Assembly (NCBI GenBank): GCA_038087875.1
Contig: CM075988.1
Location: 9,054,001 to 9,118,000, forward strand
DNA: 64,000 bases
Source: Malacoraja senta
Lineage: Eukaryota
Direction: 5' to 3'
Positions 996 to 64,000 of the stretch are shown here, one piece after another. How positions within the stretch are numbered: the first letter of the stretch is position 1; each line of letters begins with the position of its first letter. The notes below the pieces were generated by a model. It was not told the DNA's origin, made no database searches, and worked only from the letters and a program-made list of their open reading frames with translations. The position numbers and the translations under genes are program-made.

Positions 996-3900
996 GTGTT
1001 ATGAGTGAGAAACATCAGGGATGTCCATATCACCTGCTCCATGGTGGGCACTGATGACTGTTGCATTGATAACTGCCTAACTCACGCTTATTTCCATTGC
1101 TTTGTCTCCCAGACAAAAGCACTCACAACATTCTGTTACACCTAACTCATGTTTAAGGTCTCAAGCATCCTGTAAAGGGGGTTCTTCTCAGTGAGGTCTT
1201 CTAAAGACAAGCCGCGACTTTCAATCTGAAGAAGGGCCTAAACTTGAAATGTCACCCATTCCTTCCCTCCAGAGATGCTGCCAATCCCGCTGAGTTACTC
1301 CAGCATTTTGTGTCTATCTTCGGTTTAAACCAGCATCAGCAGTCCCTTTCTGCACATCGATCCAGGGCATTTGGGTTAATCAGGTTTATTTCTCCAGTTT
1401 TTTTTATTTGCTGATACATTAAGTTCTTAATTCTCCTTCGATCCATGATTCTGCAATATTTCCAGTATATTTATTTTTGCCTCTTCTCCGATATCAAATA
1501 TTAGTTTACATTTCAGCTACTGCCCTATTCCCCACTATAGTTTATCCTGCATCTGTTTCCAAGGAACCCAAACTTACTTAATTCTTTAAATTAAAGCTCA
1601 CTGAAGTCTGTAACAAGACCTGAACCAAATTCTCCTCATCAGCCTGACGAAGGGTCCTAAAACGTCATCTGCCCATTCCCTCCACAGATATTGACTGACC
1701 TGAACACCTCCAGTTCTTTATTCTATGCTCGAGATACCAGAACAGCAGTCTCTTGTGACGTTTATTAACTCAATTTTAAAATTCACATTCGATTTTTTAA
1801 AAGTCGGCATCAAAATCTCTAGTTCCAGTGACCCTAGTCCTAAACTCTCTCCCTTATCCTCCGCCTCCACTCTATTTAACCTAGAATATCAAAATCTACC
1901 CTCTTGTTTTTAACTGAGAAGGTAACAGGGTAATTTAAGAAACAAAACTGTTCAGGCGTATTAAATTCAAAGAACAGGATAGTTTTCCAATGTCCATTTT
2001 ACAATTAAGGTCACAAAATAATAAATGTCTTTGATCGAGCTGCCTGCCTTGACAAATTGCCTGCCGTGTCTGCCTACAATATTGGTGCTGTCCATTTCAC
2101 AAACTGACGTGCTCTGGGATATCATAGGTAAAAGCTGCTATTTAAATACAAGACCACTCATTCTTTATTATCATTAATCACATCAGATAGAAAATAAATT
2201 AGCTCCTTGCTGAGGCAGTATGACATTGGGCAGTGAATAGGTTCAGTGTTTTATAAAGTTTTGAGAGATTTTGTCACATGAATTAGGATAAAAAAATGCT
2301 ACCATAATGTTATGTCTATCAGCAGGACATGCAGCATCTCTTGGAGAAGGAATGGGTGACGTTTCGGGTCGAGACCCTTCTTCACCCATTCCTTCCCTCC
2401 AGAGATGCTGCCTGTCCCGCTGTGTTACTCCAGCTTTTTGTGTCTATCTTTGGTTTAAACCAGCATTTGCAGTTCCTTCTTACACAGTTCTGTCTATCCA
2501 TTAACCTTTACAATCCAGACTTAATTGAGGAGGTTACCACCTGATAATTCATCCCATCTTTATCTTTAGCATTGTATTATCCTGGAGCTCACTTCTTACT
2601 CATACCTCCTTAAAACATGAAAATCTGCTTTGTTGGCATTACCAGCATTCAAACTTCCATTCAACAGATCAAAAACATAAAAATGAAAGCTAGATTCTGA
2701 ACAACTGGATCCCTTTGAAGCAAAGGTGTAGCAATTGAAGGAAGAGTCTGATGGTTCATTAGGGAAGATGGCAGCTTGGTACAGGATGTCATTGCAGTGA
2801 GATTAATCCTTTCATTTGTAGCCATTTAATATCCCATTTGAACTGACTTCACAAACAACCAACAATCAAAACTGACACCAGATAGATATTTGAATATTTT
2901 GAAACTCATCAAGGCATAAAGAAATCACTAATGATTGTGGGTTCGGGTTGCAATTACTGGTTACCCATTCATTTTTTTAAATTTATTGCCCTGTTCATTT
3001 CCGGATACAGACAACAAAATTGGAATACACATCCACCTATGATCCGAAAAGCTCCACTGAAGAATAATAAATAATTCATTGGAACTAGTAAGCGTTACCA
3101 ATAAGGAGGTTAAATCTGTGAAAATTGGATTTATACAGTCAAGTTCAGAAGGGTGCACACACTCACATAAAGGTAAAATACCACCACAGCGGCGAGAGCT
3201 CCTCGTCACAGTTCCTTAGGGGGGGGGGGGGGGGGGAAGGAGGGAAATGATCAGAGTTTAAGTTTACTTGGGTGTCAGAGGGTCACAGCATTGGAGTGCT
3301 TTGGCCTGTGTGTGTAGACGTGGCGGAATTAAGCAACAGGAAGGCGTTGTCTTGCCTACAGTAGGTTATTGAACCATGCTGTGCTGTATCCGTAGGAATA
3401 AGCAGGTAAAATGTTTGATTCAGCTTTCTCTATTGTATTGTTGAACAATGTACTTTGGAAAGGCAGAGTGCATGGAAGTGTAGCAACATGCGAATGCTGC
3501 TAAACTAGTTCATTCTTAAAGGACATCTGTACATAAAGATTGTTGGAAATGTTAGGAGAGTGCTCAGCACATTTTTCTTTCTCCTTAGAGATTGTTCCTC
3601 CGCAAAATGTCCTCACTGTTTATCTTCTCACGATCTGGTGAAGTATTGGGATGAGATCAGTATATGTGCTGAATGAAAATGGTCTCTGGGGATCCGTGAT
3701 CAAATTTCGTAACTGGTAGGATATTGTTAATGATTGCCAGCGGAAGAATATTATGATGTATGATTCATACTTTCCTCCTCAAAATGTCATATGTAACAAT
3801 GTCAACAAGTATTTTTAAAGCTATATATGGCACAACAGAGTGATATTTCTGCAGCACACCAATGAGATGAAGAGCAATGGTTTAATTAAGACTGGATGCT

Positions 3901-36899: not shown

Positions 36900-37871
36900 C
36901 ATATCTTGGAAAGGATTATCAGACCGTACGGTGGATGTTATGACAGCAGCCTGGAGGAATAGTACCCAGAAGCAGTACATCTATATAAAGAAATGGGAGG
37001 AGTTTTGTTCAGGGAAACATATTGCATATAACCCAGCAGAAATTTCAGATGTAATAGAGTTCCTTTCTACTCTATACTATGAATTAAAATTAAGTTATAG
37101 TGCAATTAATACTGCACAAAGTGCACTCTCTGCATATTTAAGCAGTGAATCAGAACAAACTCCAATAGGAGCACATCCTTGGGTCTGTAGGTTTAAGAAA
37201 GGAATTTTCAACTCTAATCCTCCCAGACCTAGGTATACAGAAATCTGGAATGTAAAAGATGTACTGATGTTGCTAAGGAATTGGAATCCAGTTGAAACTC
37301 TGTCATTATCCAAAATCACCATGAAATTGGTTATGCTCATGGCATTAGTTTCAGCTTAGAGAGTTCAAACATTACAGAAACTCAGAATTGATAGAATGAA
37401 AGTAGGGCCAAATGCCGTGACAGTCTATGTCTATGATTTACTGAAGCAAAGTAGACCTTGGTTCACAGGATGCAAGTTGGAATTTTTATCATATCCTACA
37501 GATCCACGACTGTGTGTAGTAACATATGTGAAATGTTACATAGAAACAACAAAAGTTTTAAGAGGCACCGAATTGGCATTTTTTATTAGTCATAAAAAGC
37601 CTCATAAGAAAGTGTCAACACAAACAATTTCACGATGGTTGAAACAGGTGTTGAGATATTCAGGTATTGATACTGATAAAATTAACTCTCATTCCACCAG
37701 GGTGGCATCAACATCAGCGGCCAGGGATTCAGACGTGCAATAGACCTTATTCTCGCGGCCGCAGGATGGGCAAGTGAACAGATGTTTCACAAGTATTACC
37801 ATAAGGAGATTAAAGATCTCAGAGGGTTTGGTGATGCCGTGCTGGATACAGTATTAAATTCCCCATTATAA
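36900..37871 (+). pseudogene. DIRS tyrosine recombinase (in-frame stop at 37357-37359, frameshift near 37740)
   Basis: SAM-like N-terminus (ST.KQY...W..FC), SA*RVQTL, LLKQSRP, HSTR, then AAAGW...FHKYY in the next frame; ends TAA 37871. Confidence 0.92.
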
Positions 37872-43518: not shown

Positions 43519-43581
43519 AGAAGAGAGAGAGAGAGAAAGGGAGAGAGAGTGAAAGAGAGAGGGAGAAAGAGAGAGAGAGAG
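43519..43581 (+). promoter_or_regulatory. Polypurine (GA)n tract about 100 nt upstream of the start codon (5'UTR or promoter)
   Basis: Near-pure purine run agaagagagaga...gagagagagag within a stretch where I see no TE. Confidence 0.5.
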
Positions 43582-43683: not shown

Positions 43684-43698
43684 ATGGATTGCTGTTCT
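43684..43698 (+). CDS. NRGN: Neurogranin-like gene, coding exon 1 (MDCCS)
   Basis: gggATGG Kozak context; ATG GAT TGC TGT TCT followed by donor gtacgt (phase 0). Matches the neurogranin N-terminus MDCC-x and joins exon 2 in frame. Confidence 0.75.
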
Positions 43699-45774
43699 GT
43701 ACGTATAATTTCCAGTTTTTTTTCTTACTCAATCGGTTGTGATGTGTCTGCTTTATTCAAGTCTGGTGTTTACAGATCCTTTAGTTTTGAAGTTGTTATC
43801 AGTGAGATAAACTGTGAGCTGATAACTAATATTAATGGCATTTGGGTTGTATTTGATTTATATCACTTCAATTAACTTGTTCAATGCGTTGTCTTTCTAG
43901 AGATTAGTTTTTTTCTTAAATCTGTAACTATCACTGAAACTAGCATAATGTCACATAGAGGAGGATTGAAATCTCTCAGGAGTTGCATTTCATGTGTTTA
44001 GGACTTTGTGTTTATTAAAAACAATTCTAAACGAGAAGCACTTCAGCAATGAAGTTTTAACTGAAGAATTGGTGTAACGGCTTTCAGCCGATTTAACTCT
44101 TTGCTTGCTAGATCTTTCTTCAGTAAAGTATACACTGTACAGAAACATCTGGGCTCAAAAAATTATTTCCGAATCTTATGCCTGATAATAATAATAATCT
44201 GGCATTATCAAATTCTCTTTGGCAAAGTTCCACCCAGAAATAAGTATTAGCTTTGAAACACTGTGATGGACATTGTTAAAAATAAACAATTTGTTAGAGA
44301 CATTGCTGCTTTAATGTAAAATTGGTATTATTATTTTGGAGTTTATGAAATTAAAATTATGATTCAAAAATGTCATGATGAATTATTATATTTCTACATT
44401 TTAAATTTAAGCTTAAAGATATTGATGGATTGAATCTATAAGGAAAAGTGGTGGCAGTAACAGGAATATAAAGTTATATGTAAACAAGAGTATTAAGGGT
44501 CTCAACCCAGAACGTTGCCTATCCATGTTCTCCAGAGATGTTGCCTGACCCGCTGTGTTATTCCAGCACTTTGTGTTCTAGAAAGTCAGCAATGCTTCTT
44601 CAGTCACGTAATAATACATATTTGGAATAACTTACCATGTAGGGTAGGTAAACTAAAACTTATAAAACATTTGAAATGCCCTTGGATTAAAACTGGAAGA
44701 GAGAACCAGGAGCTGTGCATGGATGGACCAAAATGTTCTTCTAGTCCTGTTTTGAAAAATGTTGATTAAAAAGTAAGACGATATCTAAAATACAAACGTG
44801 TAGGAAGGACCTGCAGATGCTGGTTTAAACCAAAGATAGACACAAAAAGCTGGAGTAACTCAATGGGTCAGACAGCATCTCTGGAGAAAAGGAATAGGTG
44901 ACGTTTTGGGTCGAGACCCTTCTTCAGACTAATACAAAGTTGTTTGGTGATTCACAGGGCCTAAAGTGTTCATATAATCTTGCTCTTAACACCATTTTAA
45001 AGTGAGAATTGTATTGTTGATGTGAAATGGAACCATTGTACTCATTATTTGGCAAGAGCAGAATGAATGACATTGGATACAACTATGTTACCAATCAGAT
45101 GCATTCTATTTTTGTTAATTCGACCTACTATTTCACATCCACCTGTCTGTCCTGGTGATCCATTGATACTGTGATGGTTTGGAATGGACATGAATGGTTT
45201 ACACTGGGCTGATCCTCTGCACAATATGAGGCCTAAATGGAAACTATGCACCCATTTGAAATTCATGGTGTGTAATGGAAAATTAACATATACCCCAGAG
45301 CAATTTCAAGGCTATCATTAGTTGTGGACATATTAGTTCCTCAGGCCTTGCGTCCTCATTGTTGACTTTCTCCTATCCAGGTAAGTGCCTCCTCTATCGA
45401 AGGAAATGAGTGCCCTTGGGTTACCAATGATGTTGTTCTGGGTGAGGAATATGGAAGCCCTACAGGTGCTTCCCTTCAATTTATCTCCATAAGGAAAGCT
45501 CAGATGGGCAAGTCAATCAGGATTGAATGTTGTCTGACTCCTATATTGTGTTCTGGATATTGCTGAAAGTGTACAACTGACAAATGCTGCCTCGAAATGT
45601 CAAGGGGAAAAAAAACCAAATGCTGGGATGCTGTTTTGCTTCTTGTATGTGATGTTTCCTTTCTAGAAAAATACTGCTCCTCCACCCTTTGTGCACAACC
45701 CCAGCCAACAAAGACTGAGTGTGGCATCTGGTCACAGACTTCCCTTGATACCACAAGGTGCCACAGATACGTGG

Positions 45775-45998
45775 AAGATAGACACAAAAATGCTGGAGTA
45801 ACTCGGCGGGACAGGCAGCATCTCTGGAGAGAATGAATGGGTGACGATTCAGGTCGAGACCTTTCTTCAGTGGAAGAAGGATCACGACCCGAAACGTCAC
45901 CCATTCCTTCTCTCCAGAGATGCTACCTGTCCTGCTGAGTTACTCCAGCATTTTGTGTCTATCTTTGATTTAAACCAGCATCTGCAGTTCTTTCCTAC
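45775..45998. mobile_element. Fold-back pair of Penelope-derived terminal repeats (MITE-like palindrome); second copy at 47565-47772
   Basis: ~95-bp inverted arms centred near 45870. Confidence 0.75.
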
Positions 45999-48839
45999 CC
46001 AGTTACTTGGAAACGGTTCTTAGGTTTTCAGTCATTCCGTTGTAGAGACATAATTGCATTCTCCGTGGTGACATATTTAGAATTGAGAATTTGCCGTGTG
46101 ATGGTTTACAGATACAAGCTCATGCAATGTTCCCCTGGCACTCTAAAGCACAACCACAATATTTATATCTGTAAGCTTTGCTATTTTGAATGTACTGACC
46201 AACCCATGATCTTTTATTTCTTCCCCTGTGTGTTTGTCATCTTTGATAAAAAAATGTTTAAGAAAGAACTCCAAGTGCGTTTTCTCTGGGTGCTCTGGTT
46301 TTCTCCCACACTCCAAAGACGCACAGGTTTGTACGTTAATTGGCTTTGGCAAAAATTGTGAATTGTCCCTAGTGTGTAGGATAGTGTATGGGGGGGGGGG
46401 GGGGGGTGGGGGGAGTCGATCGCTGGTCGGCGTGGACTCAATGTGCTGAAGGGCCTGTTTCCACACTGTATCTCTAAATTCTAAAAGACTATTGTCAAAT
46501 CCATAGCGAGTGTCAATGTCAATGGTCCTTTCTCCTCATAAAGTCACTGATTGCTGATCCATCAGGGATGAAAAAAGATTTTCCATGTGTTATTACCACA
46601 GAAAGTCTGTAATAAAACTCCCCACCCCTCTCTGTTCCACTTCCACTTACAGAATGCTACATGCTTATCTTTACACTCATCATCTCTTTACAGAGATTAT
46701 TTATGGAAAGGTGGTTATCTCTAGTTTCAAAGGAGAACATGTTACTAAGATACATGCTTTTCTTTCTGAAACAAAAAGAGTGCTTTGGTCGGCACAGTGG
46801 CAGAGCACTAGAGTTGCTGGCTTACAGCACCAGAGACACAGGTTCGATCCTGACTATGGGTGCTGTCTGTACGGTGTTTGTACGTTCTCCCTGTGACTGC
46901 GTAGCTTTTCTCTGAGTGCTCTAGTTCCTCACAAAGATGTACAGGTTTGTAGGTTAATTGGCTTCAGCAAAAATTGTAAATGATCCCCAGTGTGTAGTGT
47001 GTAGGATGGTGCTAGTATATAGGGTAATCACTGGTTGTCGTGCACTTAGTGGGCTGAAGGACCTGTTTCCGCGCTGTATCTCTAAAGTTTAAAGTAAAGT
47101 ATTATACTTGGTACTTTAGGTGAGAGAATTCCAAAGTGCAGAACCCAGACAATTCAAGGCATGATTGTTGATGGTGTTTGAATGGGTGGTGGTGGGGGTG
47201 GGGGTGGTGTGGTGAGGGGAGGGGTGAATAGCATTGGGTACAGGGATAGAAACCTAGAATTGGAGCAATGCAGAGGTGTGAAGAAAGACTGAGACTTGGG
47301 AGAGGATTTAAATGGAGGGATTTGAAAACACAAGGAACACAAGGTAGATCAGCATTTGGTTCGTTGTGATCCAGTCTGTAGAAGAAGGAAGGAAGGAAAG
47401 AAATGAAGAAAGCAAAGAGGTTCACTTGGTAGTATGGCAAATTAATATAGTGCAGAGTTTGTTATTGGGCTCTGACGATCATTCCTTTTGGTATACGTTG
47501 CCAGATCTAACTGAGTATATAAATGCAATTTATTCATATTCTATAAGTATTAGTCAGTGTTCATTGCTGGAGTAACTCAGCGGGACAGGCAGCATCTCTG
47601 GAGAGAATGAATGGGTGACGATTCAGGTCGAGACCTTTCTTCAGTGGAAGAAGGATCACAACCCAAAACGTCACCCATTCCTTCTCTCCAGAGATGCTAC
47701 CTGTCCTGCTGAGTTACTCCAGCATTTTGTGTCTATCTTTGATTTAAACCAGCATCTGCAGTTCTTTCCTACCCAGTTACTTGGAAACGGTTCTTAGGCT
47801 TTCAGTCATTCCGTTGTAGAGACATAATTGCATTCTCCGTGGTGACATATTTAACATTGAGAATTTGCCGTGTGATGGTTTACAGATACAAGCTCATGCA
47901 ATGTTCCCCTGGCACTCTAAAGCACAACCACAATATTTATATCTGTAAGCTTTGCTATTTTGAATGTACTGACCAACCCATGATCTTTTATTTCTTCCCC
48001 TGTGTGTTTGTCATCTTTGATATAAAAATGTTTAAGAAAGAACTGCAGATGCTGGAAAAATATTTGAATTAAAGATGGTGACTTTAGATAATTTCCTCTT
48101 CCAATATTTTTAAGCCAAAAGGAGTACCTGCATGATATTGTCCCTTTACTATCTTAGGAAGATGCTCAGTATGACCTACAAGAGGGTGACTTCAAGATAG
48201 GCATTCATAGAAACATAGAAACATAGAAAAATAGGTGCAGGTGTAGGCCATTCGGCCCTTCGAGCCATTCAATATGACCATGGCTGATCATCTAAAATCA
48301 GTAACCCATTGCTGCTTTTTCCCCATATCCCTTGATTCCTTTAGCCCTAAGAGCTAAATCTAAGTCTCTCTCTTGAAAACAATTCACTGAAGAGATACAT
48401 CTTGAAACTAGTATGGAGGACAGGATGTTCCAGACTTTAGGTTGTATAATGAGACAGCCTTAATCCATAAACCCACAGGTGTGGATCTTCCAGGGAAACA
48501 TGAAAAATTTCCTTAAATAACAAAAAATATATATATTTTTCATTAATTTGAGGATATTTGTCAACATCTGAAGTATTTAATAAATTGCAACAAGTATATA
48601 TTCCATTGAGTAATAAAAAATGATGAGAAAATTCAACCAACCATTACAAGCCAAGCATTAAGGGTAATATTACGTGAAAAAAAGTCTTAAATTTGAGGGA
48701 CATTAAGCCCGAAGTTAGGAAGTTTCAGAAAGCAGCAGGTTGACCAGGTTTGATTAAGAGGGACAGAATATAAAGTAGAAAGAAGTGTTAAACAACAAAG
48801 TACAATGTGGAAAAGTATAGAGAGGCGAAAATAAATGTA

Positions 48840-49465
48840 CACACAAGGATCTGCAGATGCTGGAATCGTGGGCAAAATACAAAGTACTGGAGTAATGCAG
48901 TGAGTCAGGCAGCATCTGGGGAGGGAATGGACAGGTGACGTTTCAGGTCAGCACCAGACTGCTTGTATTAGGAGGGAGAACGTTTGAAAAGAGGGGTAGG
49001 GTTGGGACAAAGTTGGGCAAGTGATAGGTGGATGCAGGTGTGGAGGGTTGATTGTCAGATGGGTGTAATAAATGACATAATCGAGAGATGCAAATGATAT
49101 CAGATAAGAAGAGGAGAGGTATGAAATGTAAAGCTAAAGAGATAGAGATGGTGGAAGTGGGCGAGGGGTAAGTGCAAAGAGGGGCAGGATAGTTGGAGAA
49201 ATGGTTGTGCACTGGGAAGGAGACAGATGGGATGTGGGGGGTATTATTTATTTGGAAAATGCAATGTTTGTACCATTGGGTTGTAAGCTACCCAAGCAGA
49301 ATATGAGGTGTTGCTCTAGTTTGCGTGTGGCATCACTCTGGCAATGGATGAGGCCCAGGTTAGAAAATGTGCGATGGGAATGGGAATGGTAGTTAAAATA
49401 GTTAGCAACTGGGAGATCCAGCAGGCCTTGGTGGACCGAGTACAAGTGTTCAGTGAAAAGATCAC
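48840..49465 (-). mobile_element. Penelope-like element 3' part
   Basis: ORF 49248..49445 (LPVANYFN..SHSH...LEQHLIFCLGSLQPNG.N) and terminal repeat at ~48845-48960. Confidence 0.78.
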
Positions 49466-51144
49466 CTTGGTCCCATAGAGAAAAGGTGATTATAACAGGG
49501 AATAAAATTAATAAATAAATATTTTGTATCTGCCTTTAGAAAACATAATTAAAAAAATTCCAGGGAGTCTAAGATTTAAGAACAGTAATGAACTTAACAT
49601 TATTAATTAAATATCTCAGCATTATAAATGAGATTAGCTGCAGGGGAAATGAATATGAAAGTGATGATCTTAAAGTTCCTAATATTCAGAAACTGTGTAC
49701 CAGCACAGGGAAATATTACAAATGACAGACCTCTTCACAAGGACAGAAAAAGAGGAAAATGAAATCCATTGTTAAGAACATAACAGGACACTTTTAAAAC
49801 TAACGTGTCATTAGGCATGGTCAGCATAGTTCTATGAAAGGGAAATAATGTTTGAAATTCTCAAAGTATGTTTTAAGAATATCATAAAGAATAGATAAGG
49901 GTGAACCACTGAGCTTAGAAATTTGAAAGGCACTTAGTAGGTACCTCAGAAAATATTGTTATTTTAAGTAATGGTGCATTGGTTTCAGATAACTAAAACA
50001 TGGGTAGAGAATTGTTTACAGGGCACAATGTAGAAGCTTGGAATGATCAGGTATTTTTAAGCTGTGCAGGATGTTACCAGTGGTGTAGAAAGGAACTGCA
50101 GATGCTAGTTTACACTGAGGATAGACACAAAATGCTGCAGTAACTCAGCGGGACAGGCAGCATCTCTGGGTAGAAGGAATGGGTGACGTCTCGACCCGAA
50201 ATGTCCATGTTGCCAGTGGTGTAGTGCAGGGGCAATCATGAGACTGTAAACATTCACAGTGTTCGTTGTGAGAAGGTGAGAGTATTATAACACTCCAATC
50301 CAATCCAAAGACATGCACGTTTGTAGGTTAATAGGTTTGTAGGTTGTAAACTTCCCTGGATTGCCCTTAGTTTGTAGGATGTGAAACTGGGATAACGGGT
50401 GACCATTGGTTGGCATGGACTCTGGTGGGCCAAAGGGCCTGCTCCCAACCTGCATCTCTAAAGTAAACTAAACTAAACATCTATTTTCACTGCAGATACA
50501 AAAGAAGACAAAAAGTGGAAGTTGGTTAGGGATCTGAAGGAAAAAGGGATATAGGCAGCTGGATCAGAAAGTGGCAGTGAGGCCATAACTCAGGTGTGAT
50601 GTTATTCGGTTTGGCAGGATTAGCAAACAAATGATAGAAAATGTTGTGAATATGCAGTTTGACGAACTGGCTGATGAAAGGTTCATGAAGGAATTAGCAA
50701 GACGCATTATAAGTTCTTATCACAAAATGGTTGGTATAAAGTAGGGGTGTTTTAGTGTAGTTATAAAGGACTCTGATGAGATCCTAACTGGAGTACCATG
50801 TGCAGTTTTCTTCTCTGTACCTAAGGAGGAATATACTTACCTTGTAGAGAGATAGTTCAGATTCACCAAATTGATTCCTGGGATAAGGTGAATTCGCAGG
50901 ATCGAAAAACTATGGTTTATATTCAAAGGTAATGCAAGATTTTGAATCGAAAAGATAAATACAAAGAAGATTGAGAATCTGAACTGCGGAGGATAGTCAC
51001 AGATAAGAGGTCAACTATGTAAAACAGAGATGAGGAAATGAAAATATGCAGTTGTTCAAAAAGATATCTCACCACCACCTTCTCAAGGGCAAATAGGGAG
51101 GGGCAATTGTTCATGGCTTAGCCTACAAAGCCTCCATCCCTTTG

Positions 51145-51435
51145 TTCAGTTTAGAGATACAGTGCGGGAATAGGCCCTTCAGCCCACTGAGTCCACGCCA
51201 ACCAGCGATCCCTGCACATTAACACTATTCTACACACACTAAGGACAATTTTTACATTTACCAAGGCAGTTAACCTGCAAACCTGTACGTCTTTGGAGTG
51301 TGGGAGCAAACCGAAGGTATCGGAGAAAATCCAGACAGGTCACGTGGAGAACATACAAACTCCGTACAGACAGCACCTGCAGTCGGGATCTCTGGTGCTG
51401 CAAGCGGTGTAAGGCAGCAGCTCCACCGCTGCACA
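51145..51435 (-). mobile_element. HE1-like V-SINE
   Basis: Reverse complement of the SINE consensus. Confidence 0.8.
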
Positions 51436-51771
51436 ACAATGCCATGAATTAATATGAAAAGTGAACAGGGCCAGGCAGAGAGTTGGCCATTACCCGGCAG
51501 AGTGTGGATTAGGCTGGAGAGACTGTGTGACCTACTTGCTCCTCTTTCTTGTCTGCTTAAAACACATGGTCCATTCGTTGACTCTATTCTGGATCTCCAG
51601 CAAAACCTTCTGTATGTTTCCTGACCCACAGAACAGATTTGATGTTATTTAATGCAACTGATCTGGTTCCTTTTCTCAGCACTTTCAAGGTTTCTCCCTG
51701 TGAGCTTTCTCAGCTCTTACTGGGCAGTCTATCCAGGGTGGAAATGACCCACTGAAAGGTCTCCTTTTATT

Positions 51772-52445
51772 AGAAACATAGAAACATAGAAAATAGGTGC
51801 AGGAGTAGGCCATTCGGCCCTTCGAGCCTGCACCGCCATTCAATATGACCATGGCTGATCATCCAACTCAGTATCCTGTACCTGCCTTCTCTCCATACCT
51901 CCTGATCCCTTTAGCCACAAGGGCCACATCTAACTCCCTCTTAAATATAGCCAACGAACTGGCCTCAACTACCTTCTGTGGCAGAGAGTTCCAGAGATTC
52001 ACCACTCTCTATGTGAAAAATGTTTTTCTCATCTCGGTCCTAAAGGATTTCCCCTTTATCCTTAAACTGTGACCCCTTGTCCTGGACTTCCCCAACATCG
52101 GGAACAATCTTCCTGCATCTAGCCTGTCCAACCCCTTAAGAATTTTGTAAGTTTCTATAAGATCCCCCCTCAATCTTCTAAATTCTAGCGAGTACAAGCC
52201 GAGTCTATCCAGTCTTTCTTCATATGAAAGTCCTGATATCCCAGGAATCAGTCTGGTGAACCTTCTCTGTACTCCCTTTATGGCAAGAATGTCTTTCCTC
52301 AGATTTGGAGACCAAAACTGTACGCAATACTCCAGGTGTGGTCTCACCAAGACCCTGTACAACTGCAGTAGCACCTCCCTGCTCCTATACTCAAATCCTT
52401 TTGCTATGAATTCTAACATACCATTGGCTTTCTTCACTGCCTGCT
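51772..52445 (-). mobile_element. Young 5'-truncated CR1 LINE
   Basis: Uninterrupted 142-aa ORF2 C-terminus (KKANGML.FI..G.EYRS.EVLLQLY..LVRPHLEYCVQFWSP...RGDLIETYKI) and (atgtttct)n tail. Confidence 0.92.
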
Positions 52446-52449
52446 ATTG

Positions 52450-52757
52450 TTGGTTTAGTTTAGAGACACAGCAAAGCAACAGGCCATTCAGCCCACCGAG
52501 CCCGTGCTGACCAACGACCACCCCATGCACAAACACTATCCTACACACTAGGGGCAATTTACAATTTTACCGATGCAAATTAACCTACAAAACCTGTATG
52601 TCTTTGGAGTGTGGGAGGAATCCAGAGCACCTGACGAAATCCCAGGTGGTCACAGGCAGAACGTACAAACTCTGTACAGACAGCACCAGTAATCAGGATC
52701 AAACCCGGATATCTGGCTCTGTAAGGCAGTAACTACACCTCTATGCCGTTGTGCCGT
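52450..52757 (-). mobile_element. HE1-like V-SINE
   Basis: Reverse complement of the SINE consensus. Confidence 0.8.
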
Positions 52758-52804
52758 CCGTGTATATTCAGTATCCTTCTTTAATTTCTTTAATTGAGAG
52801 ATCT

Positions 52805-53185
52805 TGCCCACAGCCTCAAAGTACTTTTGAAGTCGTTACATAATCAATTTCTGCAGTCTCTTGTGTCTCTGATCAATTACCATAATCAAGATCACCAGCA
52901 TCAATGGGATAATGATCAGGTCATTTGTTTCTGTGGTGTAGAATATTAGCCACACACTAGACATTGCTTCCCTGTTTCACCAGATGTATCACAGGATCTT
53001 TTGTGCCCACTTGTGAGGGCATTATATATTTTGCCTGCCAGGAAAACACAAACCTCCAATAATACAACACTCCTCTACATTCAACTGGAGAGTCCTGACA
53101 GATATTGGGTTTATATGAAATGAGATTGAATCTATAATCTTCTAATGCAGAGGAGAAAATTCTGTTAACTGAGCCAAAGCTGGCA
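52805..53185 (-). mobile_element. Ancient Deu-domain SINE remnant (SacSINE1/AmnSINE1-like)
   Basis: Recognisable Deu-domain words: aagtacttttgaagt, gataatga.cag, aatatt.gcca, ggatctttt, acctcc.a.a.t.ca.cactcc. Confidence 0.5.
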
Positions 53186-54109
53186 CTTCATAGATTATTT
53201 TTGTGTTTTTTGTTTTCCATGCAATACAATGGTCTCTGAATGTCTGGAAATATTGGAGCTCTACCTACTTGTAAAATGATTAGCTCATTCAGTGTTTAGG
53301 GTGACACGGTGGCGCAGTGGTAGAGTTGCTGCCTTACAGTGCCAGAGCCCTGGGTTCCAACCTGACTATTCTCCCTGCAACAACGTGGGTTTTCCCCAGG
53401 TGCTCCGGTTTCCTTCCACACTCAACAGACGTCAGGTTCGATCCTGACTCTGCGTGCTGTCTGTATGGTGTTTGTATGTTCTCCCTGTGACTGCGTAGGT
53501 TTTCTCTGAGTGCTTTAGTTCCTCACACATTCCAAAGAATACAGGTTTATCGGTCAATTCGTGCTAGTGTACAGTGCGGACTCGGTGGGCCGAAGGGCCT
53601 GTTTCCATGCTGTATCGCTACACTAAACAGTGAAACTCGGCCTCACCTATAGCCTGTAATATTGGTTGTGGGTGGCTAAAGCTTTAAATATCCCCTCATA
53701 CACCCTGCCCAGGACTCTTCAAACATGCAGCACATCTAGGGCCAAGGAATAGCAACAGCTTTTATTTATGTAACACTTATAATTTGGGAATGTCTTCCAG
53801 GTTATTCCACAGCATGTTCAATCAAGATTTGACAAGGAGCCAAAGAGCAGACATCAGGGAAGTTTAACAAACCTTTGGTTAGAGGAAAACACAAAGTGCT
53901 GGAAGAACTCAGCAGGTCAGGCAGCAACTGTGAAGGAAATGGACAGACAATGTTTTAACTTGGAATCCTGCTTCAGTCTCAAGAAGGGTCCCAGCCCAAA
54001 ACTTTATCATACAGATGCTACCTGACACGTTGAGTGTAGTTCCTCGTGCCTCCATTTATCAAAAGAATACGTTTTAAGAAGTTTGTAACTAACCCTTCAA
54101 CCACGGTGC

Positions 54110-54410
54110 GGCACAGTGGCGCAGCGCTAATGTTGCTGCCTCACAGCTCCAGAGACCCGGGTTCGATCCTGACCACCGGTACTGTCTGTATGGAGTTTCT
54201 ACGTTCTCCCTTTGACCATGTGCGTTTTCTCTGGGTGCTCTGGTTTTCTCCCACACTCCAAAGACGCACAGGTTTGTACGTTAATTGGCTTTGGCAAAAA
54301 TTGTGAATTGTCCCTAGTGTGTAGGATAGTGTATGGGGGGGTCGATCGCTGGTCGGCGCGGACTCAATGGGCTGAAGGGCCTGTTTCCACACTGTATCTC
54401 TAAATTCTAA
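54110..54410 (+). mobile_element. HE1-like V-SINE (its 3' part is duplicated at 46271-46485)
   Basis: A/B boxes, V-domain, tail. Confidence 0.85.
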
Positions 54411-54715
54411 AAGACTATTGTCAAAGCCATAGCGAGTGTCAATGTCAATGGTCCTTTCTCCTCATAAAGTCACTGATTGCTGATCCATCAGGGATGAAAA
54501 AAGATTTTCCATGTGTTATTACCACAGAAAGTCTGTAATAAAACTCCCCACCCCTCTCTGTTCCACTTCCACCTACAGAATGCTACATGCTCATCTTTAC
54601 ACTCATCATCTCTTTACAGAGATTATTTATGGAAAGGTGGTTATCTCTAGTTTCAAAGGAGAACAAGTTACTAAGGTACATGCTTTTCTTTCTGAAACAA
54701 AAAGAGTGCTTTGGT

Positions 54716-55026
54716 CGGCACAGTGGCAGAGCACTAGAGTTGCTGGCTTACAGCACCAGAGACACAGGTTCGATCCTGACTATGGGTGCTGTCTGTACGG
54801 TGTTTGTACGTTCTCCCTGTGACTGCGTAGCTTTTCTCTGAGTGCTCTAGTTCCTCACAAAGATGTACAGGTTTGTAGGTTAATTGGCTTCAGCAAAAAT
54901 TGTAAATGATCCCCAGTGTGTAGTGTGTAGGATGGTGCTAGTATATAGGGTAATCACTGGTTGTCGTGCACTTAGTGGGCTGAAGGACCTGTTTCCGCGC
55001 TGTATCTCTAAAGTCTAAAGTAAAGT
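54716..55026 (+). mobile_element. HE1-like V-SINE (duplicated at ~46790-47100)
   Basis: A/B boxes, V-domain, tail. Confidence 0.82.
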
Positions 55027-56145
55027 ATTATACTTGGTACTTTAGGTGAGAGAATTCCAAAGTGCAGAACCCAGACAATTCAAGGCATGATTGTTGATGG
55101 TGTTTGAATGGGTGGTGGTGGGGGTGGGGGTGGTGTGGTGAAGGGAGGGGTGAATAGCATTGGGTACAGGGATAGAAACCTAGAATTGGAGCAATGCAGA
55201 GGTGTGAAGAAAGACTGAGACTTGGGAGAGGATTTAAATGGAGGGATTTGAAAACACAAGGAACACAAGGTAGATGATCAGCATTTGGTTCATTGTGATC
55301 CAGTCTGTAGAAGAAGGAAGGAAGGAAAGAAATGAAGAAAGCAAAGAGGTTCACTTGGTAGTACGGCAAATTAATATAGTGCAGAGTTTGTTATTGGGCT
55401 CTGACGATTATTCCTTTTGGTATACGTTGCCAGATTTAACTGAGTATATAAATGCAATTTATTCATATTATGTAAGTATTAGTCAGTGTTCCTTGCCTGG
55501 AGGGGTCATAAAATCAGCCACAGTGTCCATTCCTTTTTATTATTACTGTACCTGCAGTGTCTAGCTGGAAGTGTTTGCTGATAGTTGAGATGGATGGGGA
55601 GGTCCACCTTTGCCCAGCGATGTCTAATGTCCAGCTGGCAAATGCAGATGGTGTTTCTGACCTGGCAGCAGAATCTGTGAGATTCCATTTTGCAGAAAGG
55701 GCGACGTGAAATTGCCGACTGAGCCAGAGCGATAAATCTGAAGAGTAAATCAAATGATTAAAGATGAGGTGATGTGCTAAAAATTGCAACACCTCTCAGA
55801 GAAAACTGGGTTATTATCAATTGCATCTCCCTCTCCGGGAGAACCTTGTCAAGCTGACTTCCTCCTGTCTGAGTTTGGAAATGCGTGAGAATGTGTGCAA
55901 ATGGTTCTTGTTTCAAGGAGCCAATTAGCCACAGTTAGCAAGACGCAGAAGGAAAGGTTATTCTTTTTCAATTGCAGCTATAATAGTGTCTGAGCATGTT
56001 TACTTTGTCACGCTGTGGCTGAGAATTTTTTATCTCGTGTTTTCGAGTTATCAACATATGCATCTTAATAACACCGTATCTTGTGTTTAAAATAAAAGAC
56101 AGCAACCTTTTCCAGAAAGAATGTTTGTAAAGAGACAAAGAAAAT

Positions 56146-56265
56146 TGGGGAGGGTGGGGTGATGGCTGGGGGGAGGGAGGAGGGGCGGGGTGGAGATGGG
56201 GGGTGGAGATGGGGGGGAGGGAGGGGGCGAGAGGGGGGAGGAGATGGGAGGAGATGGGGGGGGGG
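56146..56265 (+). repeat. G-rich polypurine tract (G-quadruplex-prone)
   Basis: Many GGG+ runs separated by short linkers. Confidence 0.75.
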
Positions 56266-56662
56266 ATTTCATACCAGTGGAAGTTGGACAACAAATGTGA
56301 GGGAGATGAGTCCGTAATGTTCCAGGTGCAGTCTCACCTGAGCCTACAATACCCTGATACCGCAACATGAAAGCTTACATCTTACTGCACCTATATTTTA
56401 TCACAGACTCCAAGGAAGGAAAACACATAGAAAAATCCATCTTCAGTAAAAACATCGAGAATCTATAAACTTACTGGAAGAATTCACCATCAACCTCCAC
56501 TACTTATATATAATACTTATGAATGCACAGTGCTGTGAAGAATATTTATCACAAGCATCCATTATGTAATAAGCTTTGCCTTTCACATCCTGTCTTCTTA
56601 TGGAACTGCTCCTAAATCATCCTTTTTGTAATGGGACTGGAAGAATTTAGGTACTGGATAGG

Positions 56663-56982
56663 GCAGCACGGTGGCACAGAGGCAGAGTTGCTGCCTTACA
56701 GCACCAGAGACCTGGGTTCGATCCTGATTATGGGTGCTGTCTGCATGGAGTTTGTACGTCCTGCCCGTGACCTGCGTGGGTTTTCTCCAGGTGCTCCAGT
56801 TTCCTCCCACATTCCAAAGACGTACAGATTTGTATGCTAATTGGCTTGGTAACATTGTAAATTGTCCCGAGTGTGTGTAGGATAGTGTTATTGTGCGGGA
56901 ATCGCTGGTCGGGTCAGACTCAGTGGGCTGATGGGCCTGTTTCCATGCTGTATCTCTAGACTAAACTAAACTAAACTAAACT
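56663..56982 (+). mobile_element. Full-length HE1-like V-SINE
   Basis: tRNA head, V-domain, CR1-like tail, (ctaaa)n. Confidence 0.87.
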
Positions 56983-57957
56983 GGGTCGACCATGAGCAGT
57001 GGATTGGTTACACATCTCTAAGTCACCTTGACAGCTGAAACTTCTTAATTATTTCCCGGTTCAAGTAGAAGACAATTTGAAACATTAGAACAGAAGTAAT
57101 TGAAGCAGGAGTAGGCAATTTGCCCCCTCGTGTATGTTCTGACACTCACTGAGGTCATGGCTGATCTTTTACTTCTTTATCATTTCCCAGCACTAATTTG
57201 ATTCTCAATCTTTACAATCATCTATCGTTCTCTGTTTATAATATACTCAGCCACTCCTAGTAGCCCTCCTAGATGGAGAATTCCAAGATATGCTACACTC
57301 CAGATGAAGAATTGTTATCTTATCTCTGTCCTGACCTTATTTCAAGACAGTGGCTCCTGGTTTTAGACTCCCTAACCAAGGTCAACATCATGTCCACATC
57401 TACCTCATTAAACCCCACAAGCATTTTATGTACATCAACAGGAATACCTCTCATTCTTCTAAATGGGGTGGAGTGTAGAGATAATCTGCTTAGTTCATGT
57501 TCATCCTTGTGGCCCTTGTGGCTAAAGGGATCAGGGGGTATGGAGAGAAAGCAGGTACAGGATACTGAGTTGGATCATCATCCATGATCATATTGAATGG
57601 CGGTGTAGGCTCGAAGGGCCGAATGGCCTACTCCTGCACCTATTTTCTATGTTTCTATCAGTGATAGGAGTAGCATCAGGCCATTCAGCCCATCGTCTAC
57701 CTTTGATCTATCTTTCCCTCTTAACCCCATTAATCTCTCATTAGACAATCCCTTCTTTCCAGCAAACAATCTTCATTGCACTCTATTGCAAGCATTTTCT
57801 TCCTAAGCTGGGAAACCAGGTGTGTCTGTGGTATTCCAGGTGCATATTCACCTGAGCCTGATACTCCAACACTGCAAGATAAAAATATGCTGCACCTGTA
57901 TTTGGTATAATATCTTTAATTATCACAGAGATGCCATAAAACTATGCTCTGTGGCAT

Positions 57958-58250
57958 AGTTTAGTTTAGTTTAGAGATACAGCATGGAAACAGGCCCTTC
58001 GGCCCACCGAGTCTGCACCGACCAGCGATCTCCGCACACTTACATTATCCTACACCCACAAGGGACAATTTACAATTATACCAAGCCAATTAACCTACAA
58101 ACCTGTACGTCTTTGGAGTGTGGGGGAGAAACTGGAGATCCCAGAGAAAAGCTACACAGGTCACGGGAAGAATGTACAAACTCCGGACAGACAAGCACCC
58201 ATAGTCAGGATTGAACCTGGGTCTCTGACGCTCCACCGCTGTGCCACCTT
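57958..58250 (-). mobile_element. HE1-like V-SINE
   Basis: Reverse complement of the SINE consensus with (tttag)n. Confidence 0.83.
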
Positions 58251-61010
58251 GCACTAAGCTTGAAGCTCATCTTGTCAATTTGGCATATACGGTTGCCTTA
58301 AAGTAAAAGCGTTGTGACATGTGTCTGGGGAGCAATCAGTGACTTACATAATACTGTGCCGATGGATGCACCAAGCCGAGAATTCCCAGAACAGAATGTT
58401 CCCTGATTTATTGAGGCAGTGCCATTGTTTGTAAATAAAAATAACGAGATAGATGTAGAAATGATGTTGACCTTGGTTACGGTATCTAAAACCATGGAAT
58501 TTGAAAATGATGCTACCTTTAAAAAAGCTTATCGCCTGCAGGAGAGATGAAAATGAGACATTGCAAATATATAATAGCCATGTGTGGTGAGTAGAATAGT
58601 GATTGGCGGAGATGCTGGTTTACCCAGGGAGTTGTTATAACCTGGAACTTACTGCCATATGGAAGGTGAAGTATGTCACAGGAACATCGATAAACAAAGA
58701 ATGGAGAAAGGAGGAGAGAGAAAAGCATGCAAATAGTGTTGGATGAAAGGGGTTGCAGGAATATTGCGTGAGGCACAAACATTAGCGTGGACCCGCACAC
58801 ATTTATCTCTGTAATCCCTTTCCCTCAGCAAGCTGTGAATTCCAGCACTTGCAAAATCATTGCAAGTCTTTGGCTGCACTCTCCAACGTTATCTTCCTGT
58901 CTCAATAACCCTGTCCCTGGTGCAACCCCCCAGATATGCTGATTGTTCCAAACCCAAGTGTAATCTTTATGGAGATAGACGCAAATTGCTGGAGTAACTC
59001 AGCGCGGGACAGGCAGCATCTCTGGAGAGAAGGAGTGGGTGACGTTTTGGGTCGAGACCGGAAATGTCACCCATTCCTTCTCACCAGAGAAGCTCAAAAT
59101 GCTGGAATAAGAGACTCAAAATGCTGGAATAAATCATCAGTTTAAACCAGCATCTGCAGTTCCTTCCTACACGTAATCTTTATGGAGTCGGCTTGCCTTG
59201 GTTTTGCTGTCCTTGTTCCTGTAGCTGGTAATAGTCATGGGTTTGGAAGGTGCTTTCGAAAGAGCCCTGAAAAGGAATCATCAGCCGCTCAAACCAGCAT
59301 CACTGGGTCATTCTCTTTAGTGCGATAATTGTACTTACCTATTCTAACCATTATCATTGCTTTTTTAAGAAGCAACAACTTGGTGCCGACAATCTTGAAT
59401 TGCAGAAATATATAACTTATTCATGAGTTGGATTATGATTGCTTAGAACTATTTTAGTGCAATTGTTAAATTATCCAATTAATATGTGGACTAAAGCATT
59501 GATTGCATATGGCTAATCCTTTAAATATCTGCTCTGAAATCTCCTTTACTGATTATTCTGAGGCATAAATTTGAAACCTGCAATGGCAGCTGTGAATTTT
59601 TAATTCAAATTTAAATCAGTCTGAAAGAAAAAGTGAATTTTAGAAATGATGAGCATGAGCATTTAGACAAAGATAAGACCTCAGTTCCAATAACTGATTT
59701 TTGAGCTGTACTAAAGTATTATCAATGCTGAATTCAGTACCAGTTGTAAATCAGTCGTGTTCTCTACAGATGGAGATTTAAGTAAGCACGTCAGCTGTGT
59801 AGAATTACAGATGTCCTGTCTTGTACATACTTCTAGCACCCTCTTACCAGTCCACTGGAAAGATAATTGATTGGGAATTTAAAGCTCGTGATTGATCAAA
59901 ACCATTAAAATAGTAAATTGAAGCTCCTAGTATTCAATGTACAGCTTTGTCAGGGGAATTGTCATAAAATGGTTACATTATGGGCCTAATAATGAACAGA
60001 TGATACGCAGAAATGATCAACTGCTACTGTGACAATTGGGGTATTTAAATGCACAGTTAAATTGCAATTTAATTGGAATTTAAAGATAGTTCCAGTAGTG
60101 GTGATTATGAAACCACTGCATTGCTGTAAATCCCATCAACCTCATCATTGAACATTATGGAAAGAAGGAGGCTTTCCTTAACTGGTCTGTGACATTGGAT
60201 CCACAGCAATATGATTAACTCTTCATGCCCTCTAAACTGGGCAAAAAAAGCCATTCAGCATCATAGACAATAAATATATTTTTACTTCCAGCATTTCCAT
60301 TGTTCTTGATGTAAATTTTAAGCACTTTATTAATGCCTTAACTGTCCTTTCATTTCCAGAAGATGCATATGTCCTTCAACTTGATCGTTACAATTAACCT
60401 ATGAATAAGCCACAAAAGGCAACAAATAAATTAATGATCAATAGAGTAATGAATTAGTTAAATCCTGTGTTTAGCTAATTCTTCCATCCAGGACTCCTTA
60501 GACAGTACCTTCCAAATCCATGACATCTAACATCTGGAAGGACAAGGGCGTAGAAGCAGCAGGGACATCATGTATTGAAAAGCATGGAACACTAGATTCT
60601 TGATTAGTACAGGTGTCAGAGGTTATGGGGAGAAGGCAGAAGAATGGGGTTAGGAGGAAGAGATAGGTCAGCCATGATTGAATAGTAGAGTACATATGAT
60701 GGGATGAATGGCCTAATTCTACTCCTATTCCTTATGACCTTATGATTATCACCTGAAAGTTGTCCTCCAAACCATATACCATCCTGACATGGAAGTATAT
60801 CGCCACTCCTTCACCGTCACTGGGTCAAAATCCTGGGACTGCGTCCCGGACAACATTGTGCATGTACCCACACCATTGAAGAAGGCAGCTAAATGGTGTC
60901 TTCCCGAGCCACTCAGGATGGGCAATTAAATGCTGGCTCAGCTTGTAAAACCCACTTCATTTAATATATTTTCATTCAATTTCATATATTTCCCTTCAAT
61001 GACTAGATCA

Positions 61011-61042
61011 GTCTGAAGAAGGGTCTCGACCCGAAACGTCAC
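61011..61042 (+). ncRNA. Minimal type I hammerhead ribozyme-like motif in a Penelope-derived terminal repeat (repeat spans ~61008-61107)
   Basis: CUGAAGA-A-[GGGU cucg ACCC]-GAAA-CGUC with palindromic ACGU in place of stem III; stem I is only 2 bp. Confidence 0.5.
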
Positions 61043-61702
61043 CCATTCCTTCTCTCCAGAGATGCTGCCTGTCCCGCTGAGTTACTCCAGCATTTTGTGT
61101 CTATCTTTAATACATTTAAAAAATGGATAGTCGTGGATGGAATAAATATTGAATGGGAACTTTGACTGATTTTCCAACTCCCTGATGCAAATGATCCTGA
61201 GCTTTGGCTGGAATTGTTGTTCCATTTCATGGCCTGCACACCTGATATTATAGATTTTGACACAGGGACCTGACATCGGTGCTGTGTTTGTTCCAGCTCC
61301 ACTTGCACGTGCTGCTTTAGACTTTGGCCAAGACATTTGCGACATCTGTGAATATCGTCTGTTGACTTGGACAATGTTTGGGAGGAGGTGGGAGAGGTAG
61401 GAAGACTGGAAACCCAGGATGGGAGAGAGTAAGAAACAAATCCAACACCCACGTAAATATTATGGTGCAAGAGTGGCTGGCATTGTTAGATCTGCTTTGC
61501 AGTTTGCCGTTTAACTCCCACCTGTGTGCTAAATCCTGTTGGATTTTGTAGTAATCTCCAAACCAAATACATTTAATATTTGCATTTTATTTTCAACTTG
61601 TGTCATGTTTGCTTGCAGATAAGCCTTGCTTGCAAGAGCCAACTTTTTTGTGAGTAACTTGGTTTCTAAAAGCTGTTTTTTCTTCCCTTGTTTTCCATGA
61701 AG

Positions 61703-62045
61703 GTCAACAAAGAGGAAACCTGCGTGAAGCACGAGGAGGAAGACGTCCTCGACATCCCCCTGGACGACGAGGAAGCAAACGCGGCCGCGGCGAAGATCCA
61801 GGCCAGTTTCCGCGGCCACATGACCAGGAAGAAGCTCAAGGGCGGAGAGAAGGATGAATCCGAGCTGAAGGCAGACGGCACGAGGGATTGTGAGGAAGAT
61901 GCGCCCGCGGATGGGCCCGACGAGACCAGTGCGAGTGCCGGAGACTCGGGAGCAACTGATGCAGGCAAGGAAGGAAAAGAGCAGAGCGGGGCTACCGAAA
62001 AGGCAAAGGATGGGGCATCTGTTAATGGGGACCAGTCAGAGACAG
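61703..62045 (+). CDS. NRGN: Neurogranin-like gene, exon 2: IQ calmodulin-binding/PKC-site motif plus acidic GAP43-like tail
   Basis: Polypyrimidine tract then aag|GTC (phase 0). Encodes VNKEETC...[38 protein letters not shown]...; GC/CpG-rich codon usage. Candidate donor CAG|gtactg at 62045/62046, otherwise reads through to the stop at 62095. Confidence 0.88.
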
Positions 62046-62204
62046 GTACTGTAGGAGCTCATCCTCCCCTGTGGCTGCACCTGCAGTCATCATGACTTTC
62101 TCTAATTCATTCCCTCTTCTCATCTGACTTTCACCTCTCCCTGTTCCTTGAAAATTGTCTCTGCATCCCAATGGAAATGCAAAGTAAACACAAACATAAG
62201 AGGG

Positions 62205-62402
62205 GTTTGATCTTCTGAATCAGCCTACCATGTGGGGCTTCATCAAATGCCTCACTGAAATCAATGTAGATAATGTCCACTGCCCTACCTTCATCAATCA
62301 CCTTTGTCACCTCCTCAAAAAACTCAATCAGTAAGGCATACCCTGCCTTGGACAAAGCCATGCTGACTATCCCCAATTAGCCAATTCTCTTCCAAATGCC
62401 AG
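62205..62402 (-). mobile_element. CR1 LINE RT fragment
   Basis: LIEFFEEVTKVIDEGRAVDIIY.DFS.AFD..PHGRL (62131..62376). Confidence 0.85.
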
Positions 62403-63049
62403 TAAAATGATTTATTGTGTAGGTAAGTGTTGGGTGGAGTTGACAGGCATGTCTGAGAGAATAGATCACGGGGAACTATGGAAGGGAATGGGATTGATGG
62501 GATTGTTCTGAGAACCAGAACATACTCAATGGGCCAAATGGCCTCCTTCTAAGATATAGGAAAAGCAATCTACCATTGGATATGTTATAAGAAAATTGAC
62601 CTTAATGGACTATGCCATAAATGAATTTAAAACTATGTTGACATTATAATGTCAGAACACTATAAGATGATGTACTGACAAACATTAATATTTCAACAGT
62701 GGGTTTCCCTTGATGGATTTTCCAATTTAAAAGCCATTGTAAAGAACATAAAATTGAGTTACTGTCCCAAAGATTATTCATTATTGAGAAATGATGGCAC
62801 AACTCTGTTTGTGTCACAGGGTTGAATGACATCGATTGAAAATAAGATTGAAATTTGTCAGTGGGTCTATTATTTGTCCCAGTTAGAATGGGTTGGACAT
62901 TTTCAACCTATTCTCAATAAAATTCTCAATTAGGACGCAAAGAAGAAAATCATTGCACTTTAAAATTCATTAGCGTTTAATCCAGTACACATTTCCGCTG
63001 GCTGGGCAAAACGCTGCTGATGAAGTCAATAGGTGATGTGCTCCTGAAT

Positions 63050-63415
63050 GTTCACAAGTTCACCAGTTATAGGACTAGAATTAGACCATTCGGCCCATCA
63101 AGTCTACCGCCATTAAATCATGGCGGATCTATCTCACCCTCCTAACTCCATTCTCCTGCCTACTCCCCATAACCCTTGACATCCATTCTAATCAAGAATT
63201 TGTCTATCTCTACCATAAAAATATCCACTGACGGCTTCCACAGCCCTCTGTGGCAATGAGTTCCACAGATTAACTATCCTCTGACTAAAGAAGCTCCTCT
63301 TCACCTCCTTTCTAAAAGTGCGCCCTTTAATTCTTAGGCTATGACCTCTGGTCCTTGACTCTCCCACCAGTGGAAACATCCTTTCCACATCCACTCGATC
63401 TATGCCTTTCATTAT
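63050..63415 (-). mobile_element. CR1 LINE 3' fragment
   Basis: MKGIDRVDVERMFPLVGESRTRGHSLRIKG...FFSQR.VNLWNSLP (63188..63412). Confidence 0.88.
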
Positions 63416-64000
63416 TATGTTGCAGGCAACAGAAGTAGTTCACATGGTAACTTCAGTCAGATGTTGTGTCCAATCCCTGGTGTAAGTCGCCAGGACCTAT
63501 TTCTGAATTTAGCTTTTTTTACCCTTAGCAACACTAACCTAATTGCCAGTTGCTAAGCAAGATGTGCATGACAGAATGCTCTTTCAAAAGCGAGGTGCTC
63601 TGCCTGAAAAGGTAAAATGTTTGCCAGGTCACAGATGCATCTATCAAGATGACAGTGTCTGCCTTCTAAATGATTTCTCATTTCTCTTTCTTTAGCTCAA
63701 TTACCAGAATTGTCCAGGAGAATTGAAAGAAAAATAAAAACGGATTGGTTCATGTTATTTGTCATTCCAAATTTGGCAATTGTGGCTCTGATCGGTAGTT
63801 ATTAGGGGTTCAAGAAAAGTCCTTGGATTGTCTCAGAAAGAGGTCATTCAATACTCTCTGTTCCATAAGAACTTCTTGGTTTTCTGCTCATGTCCTGATT
63901 TTTGATCTCAACAAATCCTTTGTCAAATTGGCTTTTGACATCAGCTTTGAGTTTTGCATAACAATCATATTGACTGAGTCCAACACTGCCTCTATCTATG

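Follow-up and report, generated by a model that had tools for sequence, protein, structure and literature searches.

GAP43 is presynaptic and serves axon growth and regeneration, neurogranin (NRGN) is postsynaptic and serves LTP, and the two are usually treated as separate proteins. A gene in the 64,000-nt stretch of Malacoraja senta DNA analysed here (the window) raises the question of which of them it encodes, since an earlier note read it as a neurogranin head joined to a neuromodulin-like tail and proposed that it retains the ancestral state of the NRGN/GAP43 family or is a third paralogue. Judged from its sequence, the gene is an elasmobranch (skate) orthologue of NRGN, a member of the neurogranin family rather than a GAP43. 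Two first exons, one of GAP43 type (exon 1a) and one of neurogranin type (exon 1b), lie in the same phase upstream of its IQ exon (exon 2).

Table 1 Features of the neurogranin gene of Malacoraja senta, in positions of the window.
Feature	Position	Strand	Remarks
Exon 1a, coding part (MLCCIRRNKQ), GAP43-type	3376..3405	+	Phase 0; donor CAG/GTAAAA; putative intron before exon 2, 58,297 nt
Exon 1b, coding part (MDCCS), neurogranin-type	43684..43698	+	Phase 0; donor TCT/GTACGT; intron 18,004 nt
Acceptor AG with polypyrimidine tract, exon 2	61680..61702	+	In-frame ATG 61697 is the start of incomplete gene models
Exon 2, neurogranin core and most of the acidic tail	61703..62045	+	343 nt; phase 0 start, phase 1 end
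LDIPLDD acidic motif	61748..61768	+	In NRGNs, and as DIDL-x-DP in invertebrate multi-IQ proteins; not in the two GAP43s
IQ calmodulin-binding motif, PKC-site serine retained	61781..61840	+	Pfam PF00612, residues 27-46, E 2.2e-5
Probable internal GC donor, shorter-tail isoform	61965..61966	+	Leucoraja and Rhinoraja X2 models (P0004, P0118) and window sequence
Start of intron 2, formerly read-through end of gene	62046..62095	+	From orthologous models; exon 3 past the window

The exon structure proposed in the earlier note was reproduced at its 5′ side. The MDCCS codons begin at an ATG and run into a GTACGT donor, and exon 2 is preceded by a polypyrimidine tract and AG and opens a frame that yields LDIPLDD, the IQ motif, and the acidic tail. 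The proposed 43698/61703 junction is that of the Leucoraja RefSeq model XP_055516789, and the start and junction of exon 1b are identical in the Leucoraja and Rhinoraja RefSeq models. An MDCCx start directly followed by GT occurs once in the window, compared with 0.007 occurrences per 64 kb in 150 Markov simulations. The warning that so small a first exon is easily missed proved apt, as four records (P0113, P0114, P0122, and P0124) begin at the ATG just before the acceptor. Owing to this in-frame ATG-AAG (61697–61702), records of skate, whale shark, and bamboo shark begin with MK; this is either an artefact of gene prediction or a start without cysteines. Exon 2 is the sole IQ exon in the window, and its IQ motif retains all nine calmodulin-contact residues listed in section 4.1 of PMC9415131. 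The end of the gene at 62095 is probably wrong: orthologous models depart from the window frame after QSET and add a 23-residue segment ending in PEQ. A phase-1 donor (CAG/GTACTG) at 62045/62046 fits this departure, and the PEQ-ending segment was not found in 62046–64000; on these two grounds, the last 16 codons before 62093 are most likely intron. Exon 3, which ends in PEQ, is most likely located beyond the window. The GC donor inside exon 2 probably gives a shorter-tail isoform, to judge by the Leucoraja and Rhinoraja X2 models.

Comparison of exon 2 with named proteins placed it among the neurogranins. It is 96% identical to Leucoraja XP_055516789, and its best eight matches were shark and ray proteins (67–96% identity), six of which are named neurogranin; the annotated elasmobranch orthologues are 71–96% identical, and their full-length models have 133–143 aa. 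Since the best-matching named proteins are shark and ray neurogranins of this same length, the third paralogue of the earlier note is not borne out. The head of exon 2 scored z 12–16 against five of five NRGN heads and z 1.5 and 2.4 against two GAP43s, and the head, AAAK, and HM residues are all NRGN-type. In an unrooted IQ-core tree (46 columns; 25 rows, one chimaera row appearing twice; 16 of 21 inner branches open), the window exon lies near NRGN and distant from GAP43, and the order of events is not given by this tree. The gene shares with NRGN/RC3 the five-residue MDCCx start, a 20-residue IQ segment with the PKC serine, and, as far as gene models indicate, the SPA17-linked locus described below; exon 1 of mammalian NRGN likewise consists of five codons. 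It differs from NRGN/RC3 in the tail, which has about 92 residues over two exons in the skate and its orthologues compared with 25–43 in bony vertebrates, and in the additional GAP43-type first exon, which was not found in any of the bony-vertebrate neurogranin records retrieved.

The tail is the part that had suggested a mosaic with GAP43. Its content of Asp and Glu is about 30%, similar to that of GAP43, but it is Gly-rich and Pro-poor, and the GAP43 tail is the opposite. Compared with the tails of two GAP43s (L001 and L002, which were obtained by a DNA-pattern scan of metagenome contigs and called fish-type by their own sequence, the protein of L001 having no entry in the named collection), four elasmobranch tails scored below their own shuffles in eight of eight comparisons, so that the likeness is compositional only. 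These four tails gave z 11–19 against chimaera and z 1.2–3.0 against lungfish; a tail like that of elasmobranch NRGN is found in the two chimaera models, and the terminal PEQ is common to lungfish and teleost neurogranin. The tail profile PF06614 matched none of 12 chondrichthyan proteins and missed the two GAP43 controls as well. Distant tail homology to GAP43 was thus undetected with two fish-type comparators and a profile that missed its controls.

The earlier note took a short Gly-rich tail as a trait of mammalian neurogranin, which fails here (92 acidic residues in the full orthologue) and is absent also from lizard, lungfish, and teleost NRGN; therefore, it does not define the family. 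TRKK-x-KG, named as a GAP43 hallmark, is common to non-mammalian NRGNs and hence not diagnostic. The possibility, raised in the same place, that long acidic tails are standard in non-mammalian NRGN applies to cartilaginous fishes and does not extend to bony fishes, whose tails have 35–43 aa. In the ESM Atlas, both shark isoforms were nearest to neuromodulin clusters (0.93 versus 0.87 for neurogranin), with recognition values of 2240 and 2247, below the 2300 mark, and the features did not separate the 1a and 1b shark isoforms. This ranking accounts for the earlier impression of GAP43 without showing descent. That the gene is a third paralogue, or a mosaic with a GAP43-derived tail, is extremely improbable: the acidic composition and the ESM Atlas ranking speak for it, and the shuffle scores, the z values against chimaera, the PEQ end, the Gly-rich and Pro-poor composition, the NRGN-type head, AAAK, and HM residues, and the link of the locus to SPA17 in gene models speak against it. 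By these sequence comparisons, it is largely refuted already.

SPA17 bears on the position of the locus. Among the proteins retrieved, 46 combine an SPA17-type start with a neurogranin core, and SPA17 models that end in neurogranin exon 2 are found in chimaera, frogs (among them Xenopus, with two NP_ records), teleosts, birds, and mammals (e.g., P0137, P0140, P0128, P0142, and P0078); many of these records were predicted automatically, and in some, neighbouring genes may have been falsely joined. In the two chimaera models, the orthologous exon is fused with SPA17 and with an Ig V-set gene. Because SPA17 models across vertebrates join exon 2, the locus would be placed with NRGN and the exon beside SPA17. 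These joins suggest that SPA17 and NRGN are, or once were, a single transcription unit. According to PMC9415131, zebrafish nrgnb has the alternative name spa17. The window itself yielded no SPA17 exon, and any such exons would lie upstream or elsewhere. The likeness reaches further, to invertebrate RIIa proteins, in which repeats of a related acidic-IQ unit occur; the mollusc-type SPA17 repeats bear a related DIDL-x-DP-IQ unit. The neuronal neurogranin isoforms differ from SPA17 in having no RIIa domain. Five other proteins (P0152, P0272, P0281, P0288, and P0296) have three IQ motifs and an MGCNTSK start, P0152 being an igloo-like bee protein named neuromodulin. MGCNTSK is probably an independently acquired lipid anchor at the start of the same IQ unit.

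The neurogranin-type start is not the only one available to exon 2. A scan of the window for M-x-C-C yielded MLCCIRRNKQ followed by GTAAAA (exon 1a), on the same strand as exons 1b and 2, 40 kb upstream of exon 1b and with the same phase, and there is no further IQ exon in between. The gene thus reaches far upstream of 43684, the start given in the earlier note, and assembly gaps are absent across 692–64000. Exon 1a is identical in nine of ten residues to the starts of the shark X1 isoforms (tblastn E 0.01), and eight of its ten residues match the mammalian GAP43 membrane-targeting motif as given in PMC2994833 and PMC8946247. It matched positions 1–10 of Pfam Neuromodulin_N with an E of 0.081, below the curated cut-off. 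The full pattern of the exon did not occur in any of 150 Markov simulations and a loose form occurred 0.013 times per 64 kb, the pattern having been defined post hoc from the exon itself. The sequence is single-copy within the window, its start codon has A at −3, and its donor agrees with the consensus at seven of nine positions, as only 1.5% of the 3843 GT sites in the window do. The 5′ flank showed a marginal likeness to the leader of GAP43 L001 (5 of 300 shuffles as high), and the DNA flanking exons 1a and 1b showed no similarity beyond that of shuffles, 105 of 300 of which scored as high. A G run is found at 3220–3238, upstream of exon 1a, and a GA microsatellite at 43522–43580, about 100 nt upstream of exon 1b. 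A purine repeat exists near the GAP43 promoter, and the likeness of the G run and GA repeat to it is probably coincidental.

Both starts are found on the same exon 2 in RefSeq pairs of Cetorhinus maximus, Scyliorhinus torazame, Chiloscyllium punctatum, and Stegostoma tigrinum. The members of these pairs start with MLCCVRRNKQ and MDCCT, respectively, differ by five residues in length, and are identical downstream; those of Cetorhinus are filed under one LOC number. The models are automatic predictions, which GAP43 protein alignments could have guided. As the shark pairs use the MLCCVRRNKQ start, exon 1a is conserved between sharks and skate, and the Malacoraja senta window extends its range to skates. 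Among nine sharks with a record, four have the 1a isoform, three have MDCC only, and two are without any first exon, and no 1a model is on record in the four named batoids. The batoid count would agree with exon 1a being a silent or very minor relic in Malacoraja senta and the gene an ordinary long-tailed neurogranin. We regard this as quite unlikely, as the exon retains an intact ATG, reading frame, dicysteine, set of basic residues, and donor and is 9/10 identical to that of sharks, which would hardly be expected without selection since the shark/skate split.

The first exon of GAP43 encodes exactly the ten residues of the membrane-targeting domain (PMC5583208), and its dicysteine and basic motif is described as an axon-targeting signal (PMC8946247) and as sufficient for acylation and membrane binding (PMC2994833). 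The skate gene resembles GAP43 in this ten-residue exon with a dicysteine and basic residues, in having three coding exons, with an exon 2 that runs from phase 0 to phase 1, and in the IQ motif followed by an acidic low-complexity tail. Genomic GAP43 exon 2 (L002, 631 nt) starts and ends in the same phases as the 343-nt exon here, which opens with three extra residues (VNK, ADK, or GDK) where GAP43 has VEK; this extension gives weak support to an ancestral state of the NRGN/GAP43 family. There are also differences. Positions 11–31 of Neuromodulin_N are unmatched in the skate gene, whereas the GAP43 controls gave E of 1e-9 and 7e-16; the full domain (PF10580, 31 positions) is likewise missing from the shark 1a isoforms, two of four showing trace matches (E 0.64 and 2.1) over positions 1–15 only. 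The skate gene has LDIPLDD, and its tail is half the length of the GAP43 tail and unalignable with it. The structural paper PMC3589724 states that GAP43 and neurogranin have no homology beyond the IQ motif and that the IQ motifs of both bind apo-calmodulin, which is released by phosphorylation. The structure of IQ–calmodulin binding has already been solved (4e50 and 4e53), and the protein encoded here is expected to be disordered.

The restricted occurrence of exon 1a bears on its origin. Of the 187 retrieved proteins carrying [LM]DIPLDD, four start with MLCC and all are from sharks; with Malacoraja senta, the exon is confined to sharks and one skate, and no chimaera model retrieved has an MLCC start. 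Such a distribution would be expected if the exon had been copied from GAP43 into the NRGN locus of an elasmobranch or chondrichthyan ancestor by exon capture or gene conversion, making the gene a derived chimera. This origin is unlikely in our view. Position 8 of elasmobranch exon 1a is N, compared with T in mammalian and fish-type GAP43, and a single copied exon leaves the GAP43-like intron phases and the three-residue extension of exon 2 unexplained; moreover, the exon is fused to SPA17 or Ig sequence in both chimaera models, which show no neuronal first exon of any kind. A separate question is whether one locus makes both proteins because elasmobranchs have no GAP43 of their own, as could be read from the name "neuromodulin-like" given to the 1a isoforms of two sharks and from homologue searches that returned no elasmobranch GAP43. 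These searches returned no GAP43 of any species, mammals, teleosts, and cyclostomes included, and the one among representative sequences yielded chiefly invertebrate multi-IQ proteins, so this blank is uninformative, and we consider such a single-locus arrangement very unlikely. Annotated gap43 genes presumably exist in cartilaginous fishes, and the neighbours of GAP43 are LSAMP and ZBTB20.

The account that we favour, with moderate confidence, is that this NRGN has two alternative first exons on one IQ exon, 1a giving an axon-type and 1b a neurogranin-type calmodulin buffer, and that 1a was inherited from before the split of the two families. We infer that exon 1a is used in Malacoraja senta and would supply the N-terminus MLCCIRRNKQ, whose two cysteines with R6, R7, and K9 would constitute the palmitoylation and axon-targeting signal of GAP43, whereas exon 1b would supply MDCCS, the neutral-to-acidic neurogranin start. 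The disordered body common to both products would hold apo-calmodulin by its IQ motif and release it upon a rise in Ca2+ or PKC phosphorylation of the IQ serine. Because this IQ body is shared, promoter choice would place the same calmodulin buffer in different sites, i.e., at the axonal or growth-cone membrane when 1a is used and in a somatodendritic pool of neurogranin type when 1b is used. At the membrane, the 1a isoform would be expected to act as GAP43 does. Mammalian neurogranin is not known to be palmitoylated. The NRGN of teleosts, bichir, lungfish, and a frog lacks the second cysteine of exon 1b, and this loss fits 1b not being an acylation signal or anchor.

As to ancestry, exon 1a was most likely present in the gene that predated the GAP43/NRGN split, and would have been kept by GAP43 and lost from bony-vertebrate NRGN. 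The GAP43 and NRGN regions are paralogous and derive from an early vertebrate genome duplication. That the GAP43-type exon, the phases, and the three-residue extension co-occur in the jawed lineage that branched off earliest would be explained most simply if exon 1a had been retained from the common ancestor. The ancestral state proposed in the earlier note is thereby supported, but through exon 1a and the GAP43-matching intron phases, which lay outside that note. Loss of alternative exons after gene duplication is a general model of subfunctionalisation; the present case resembles it in that two alternative starts in one lineage are divided between paralogues elsewhere, and differs in that no more is shown here than that the NRGN locus has kept 1a. 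More tentatively, and as a possibility that we regard as less likely than not, GAP43 and neurogranin may have begun as promoter isoforms of one gene, arising from neuronal promoters inside an ancient SPA17 gene (RIIa plus IQ repeats) ahead of its last IQ unit. After the genome duplications, one copy would have kept MLCC and become the presynaptic GAP43, the other would have kept SPA17 and MDCC and become the postsynaptic NRGN, and sharks and skates would still be undivided. If so, a first-exon switch within a single living gene would offer a way to study the split between pre- and postsynaptic calmodulin buffering.

The gene is already annotated automatically, and the databases contain models of the two isoforms, variously named, for four sharks. 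No description of a GAP43-type exon in neurogranin, or of shark neurogranin, was found in the literature searched, most subscription journals being outside its scope. The presence of both diagnostic N-termini on one IQ exon offers a direct, testable account of the origin of GAP43 and neurogranin, and a natural experiment on whether ten residues alone decide between an axonal and a dendritic destination. A two-start locus would also explain the clashing names "neuromodulin-like" and "neurogranin-like" of shark genes, and antibody or RNA assays of GAP43 or neurogranin in sharks and skates may be confounded by it. The SPA17 link would connect these two proteins of neuronal plasticity with an older gene of cilium and sperm.

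Repeats were also noted in the window. Between exons 1a and 1b, a retrotransposon extends from 33010 to about 38400 (+), its domains spread over several frames: a reverse transcriptase (35096–35695), a trace of a Dam-like methylase (36335–36814), and pieces of a tyrosine recombinase (36880–37740), a set that we take to be DIRS1-like. Its first 491 nt (33010–33500) are 100% identical to positions 1–491 of the window, and the latter copy adjoins a gap of 200 N (492–691); the identity means either that the element was copied very recently or that the assembly is at fault. In the intron after exon 1b, recent local duplications (45791–46270 with 47565–48044, and 46271–47572 with 54216–55502) are 97–98.5% identical.
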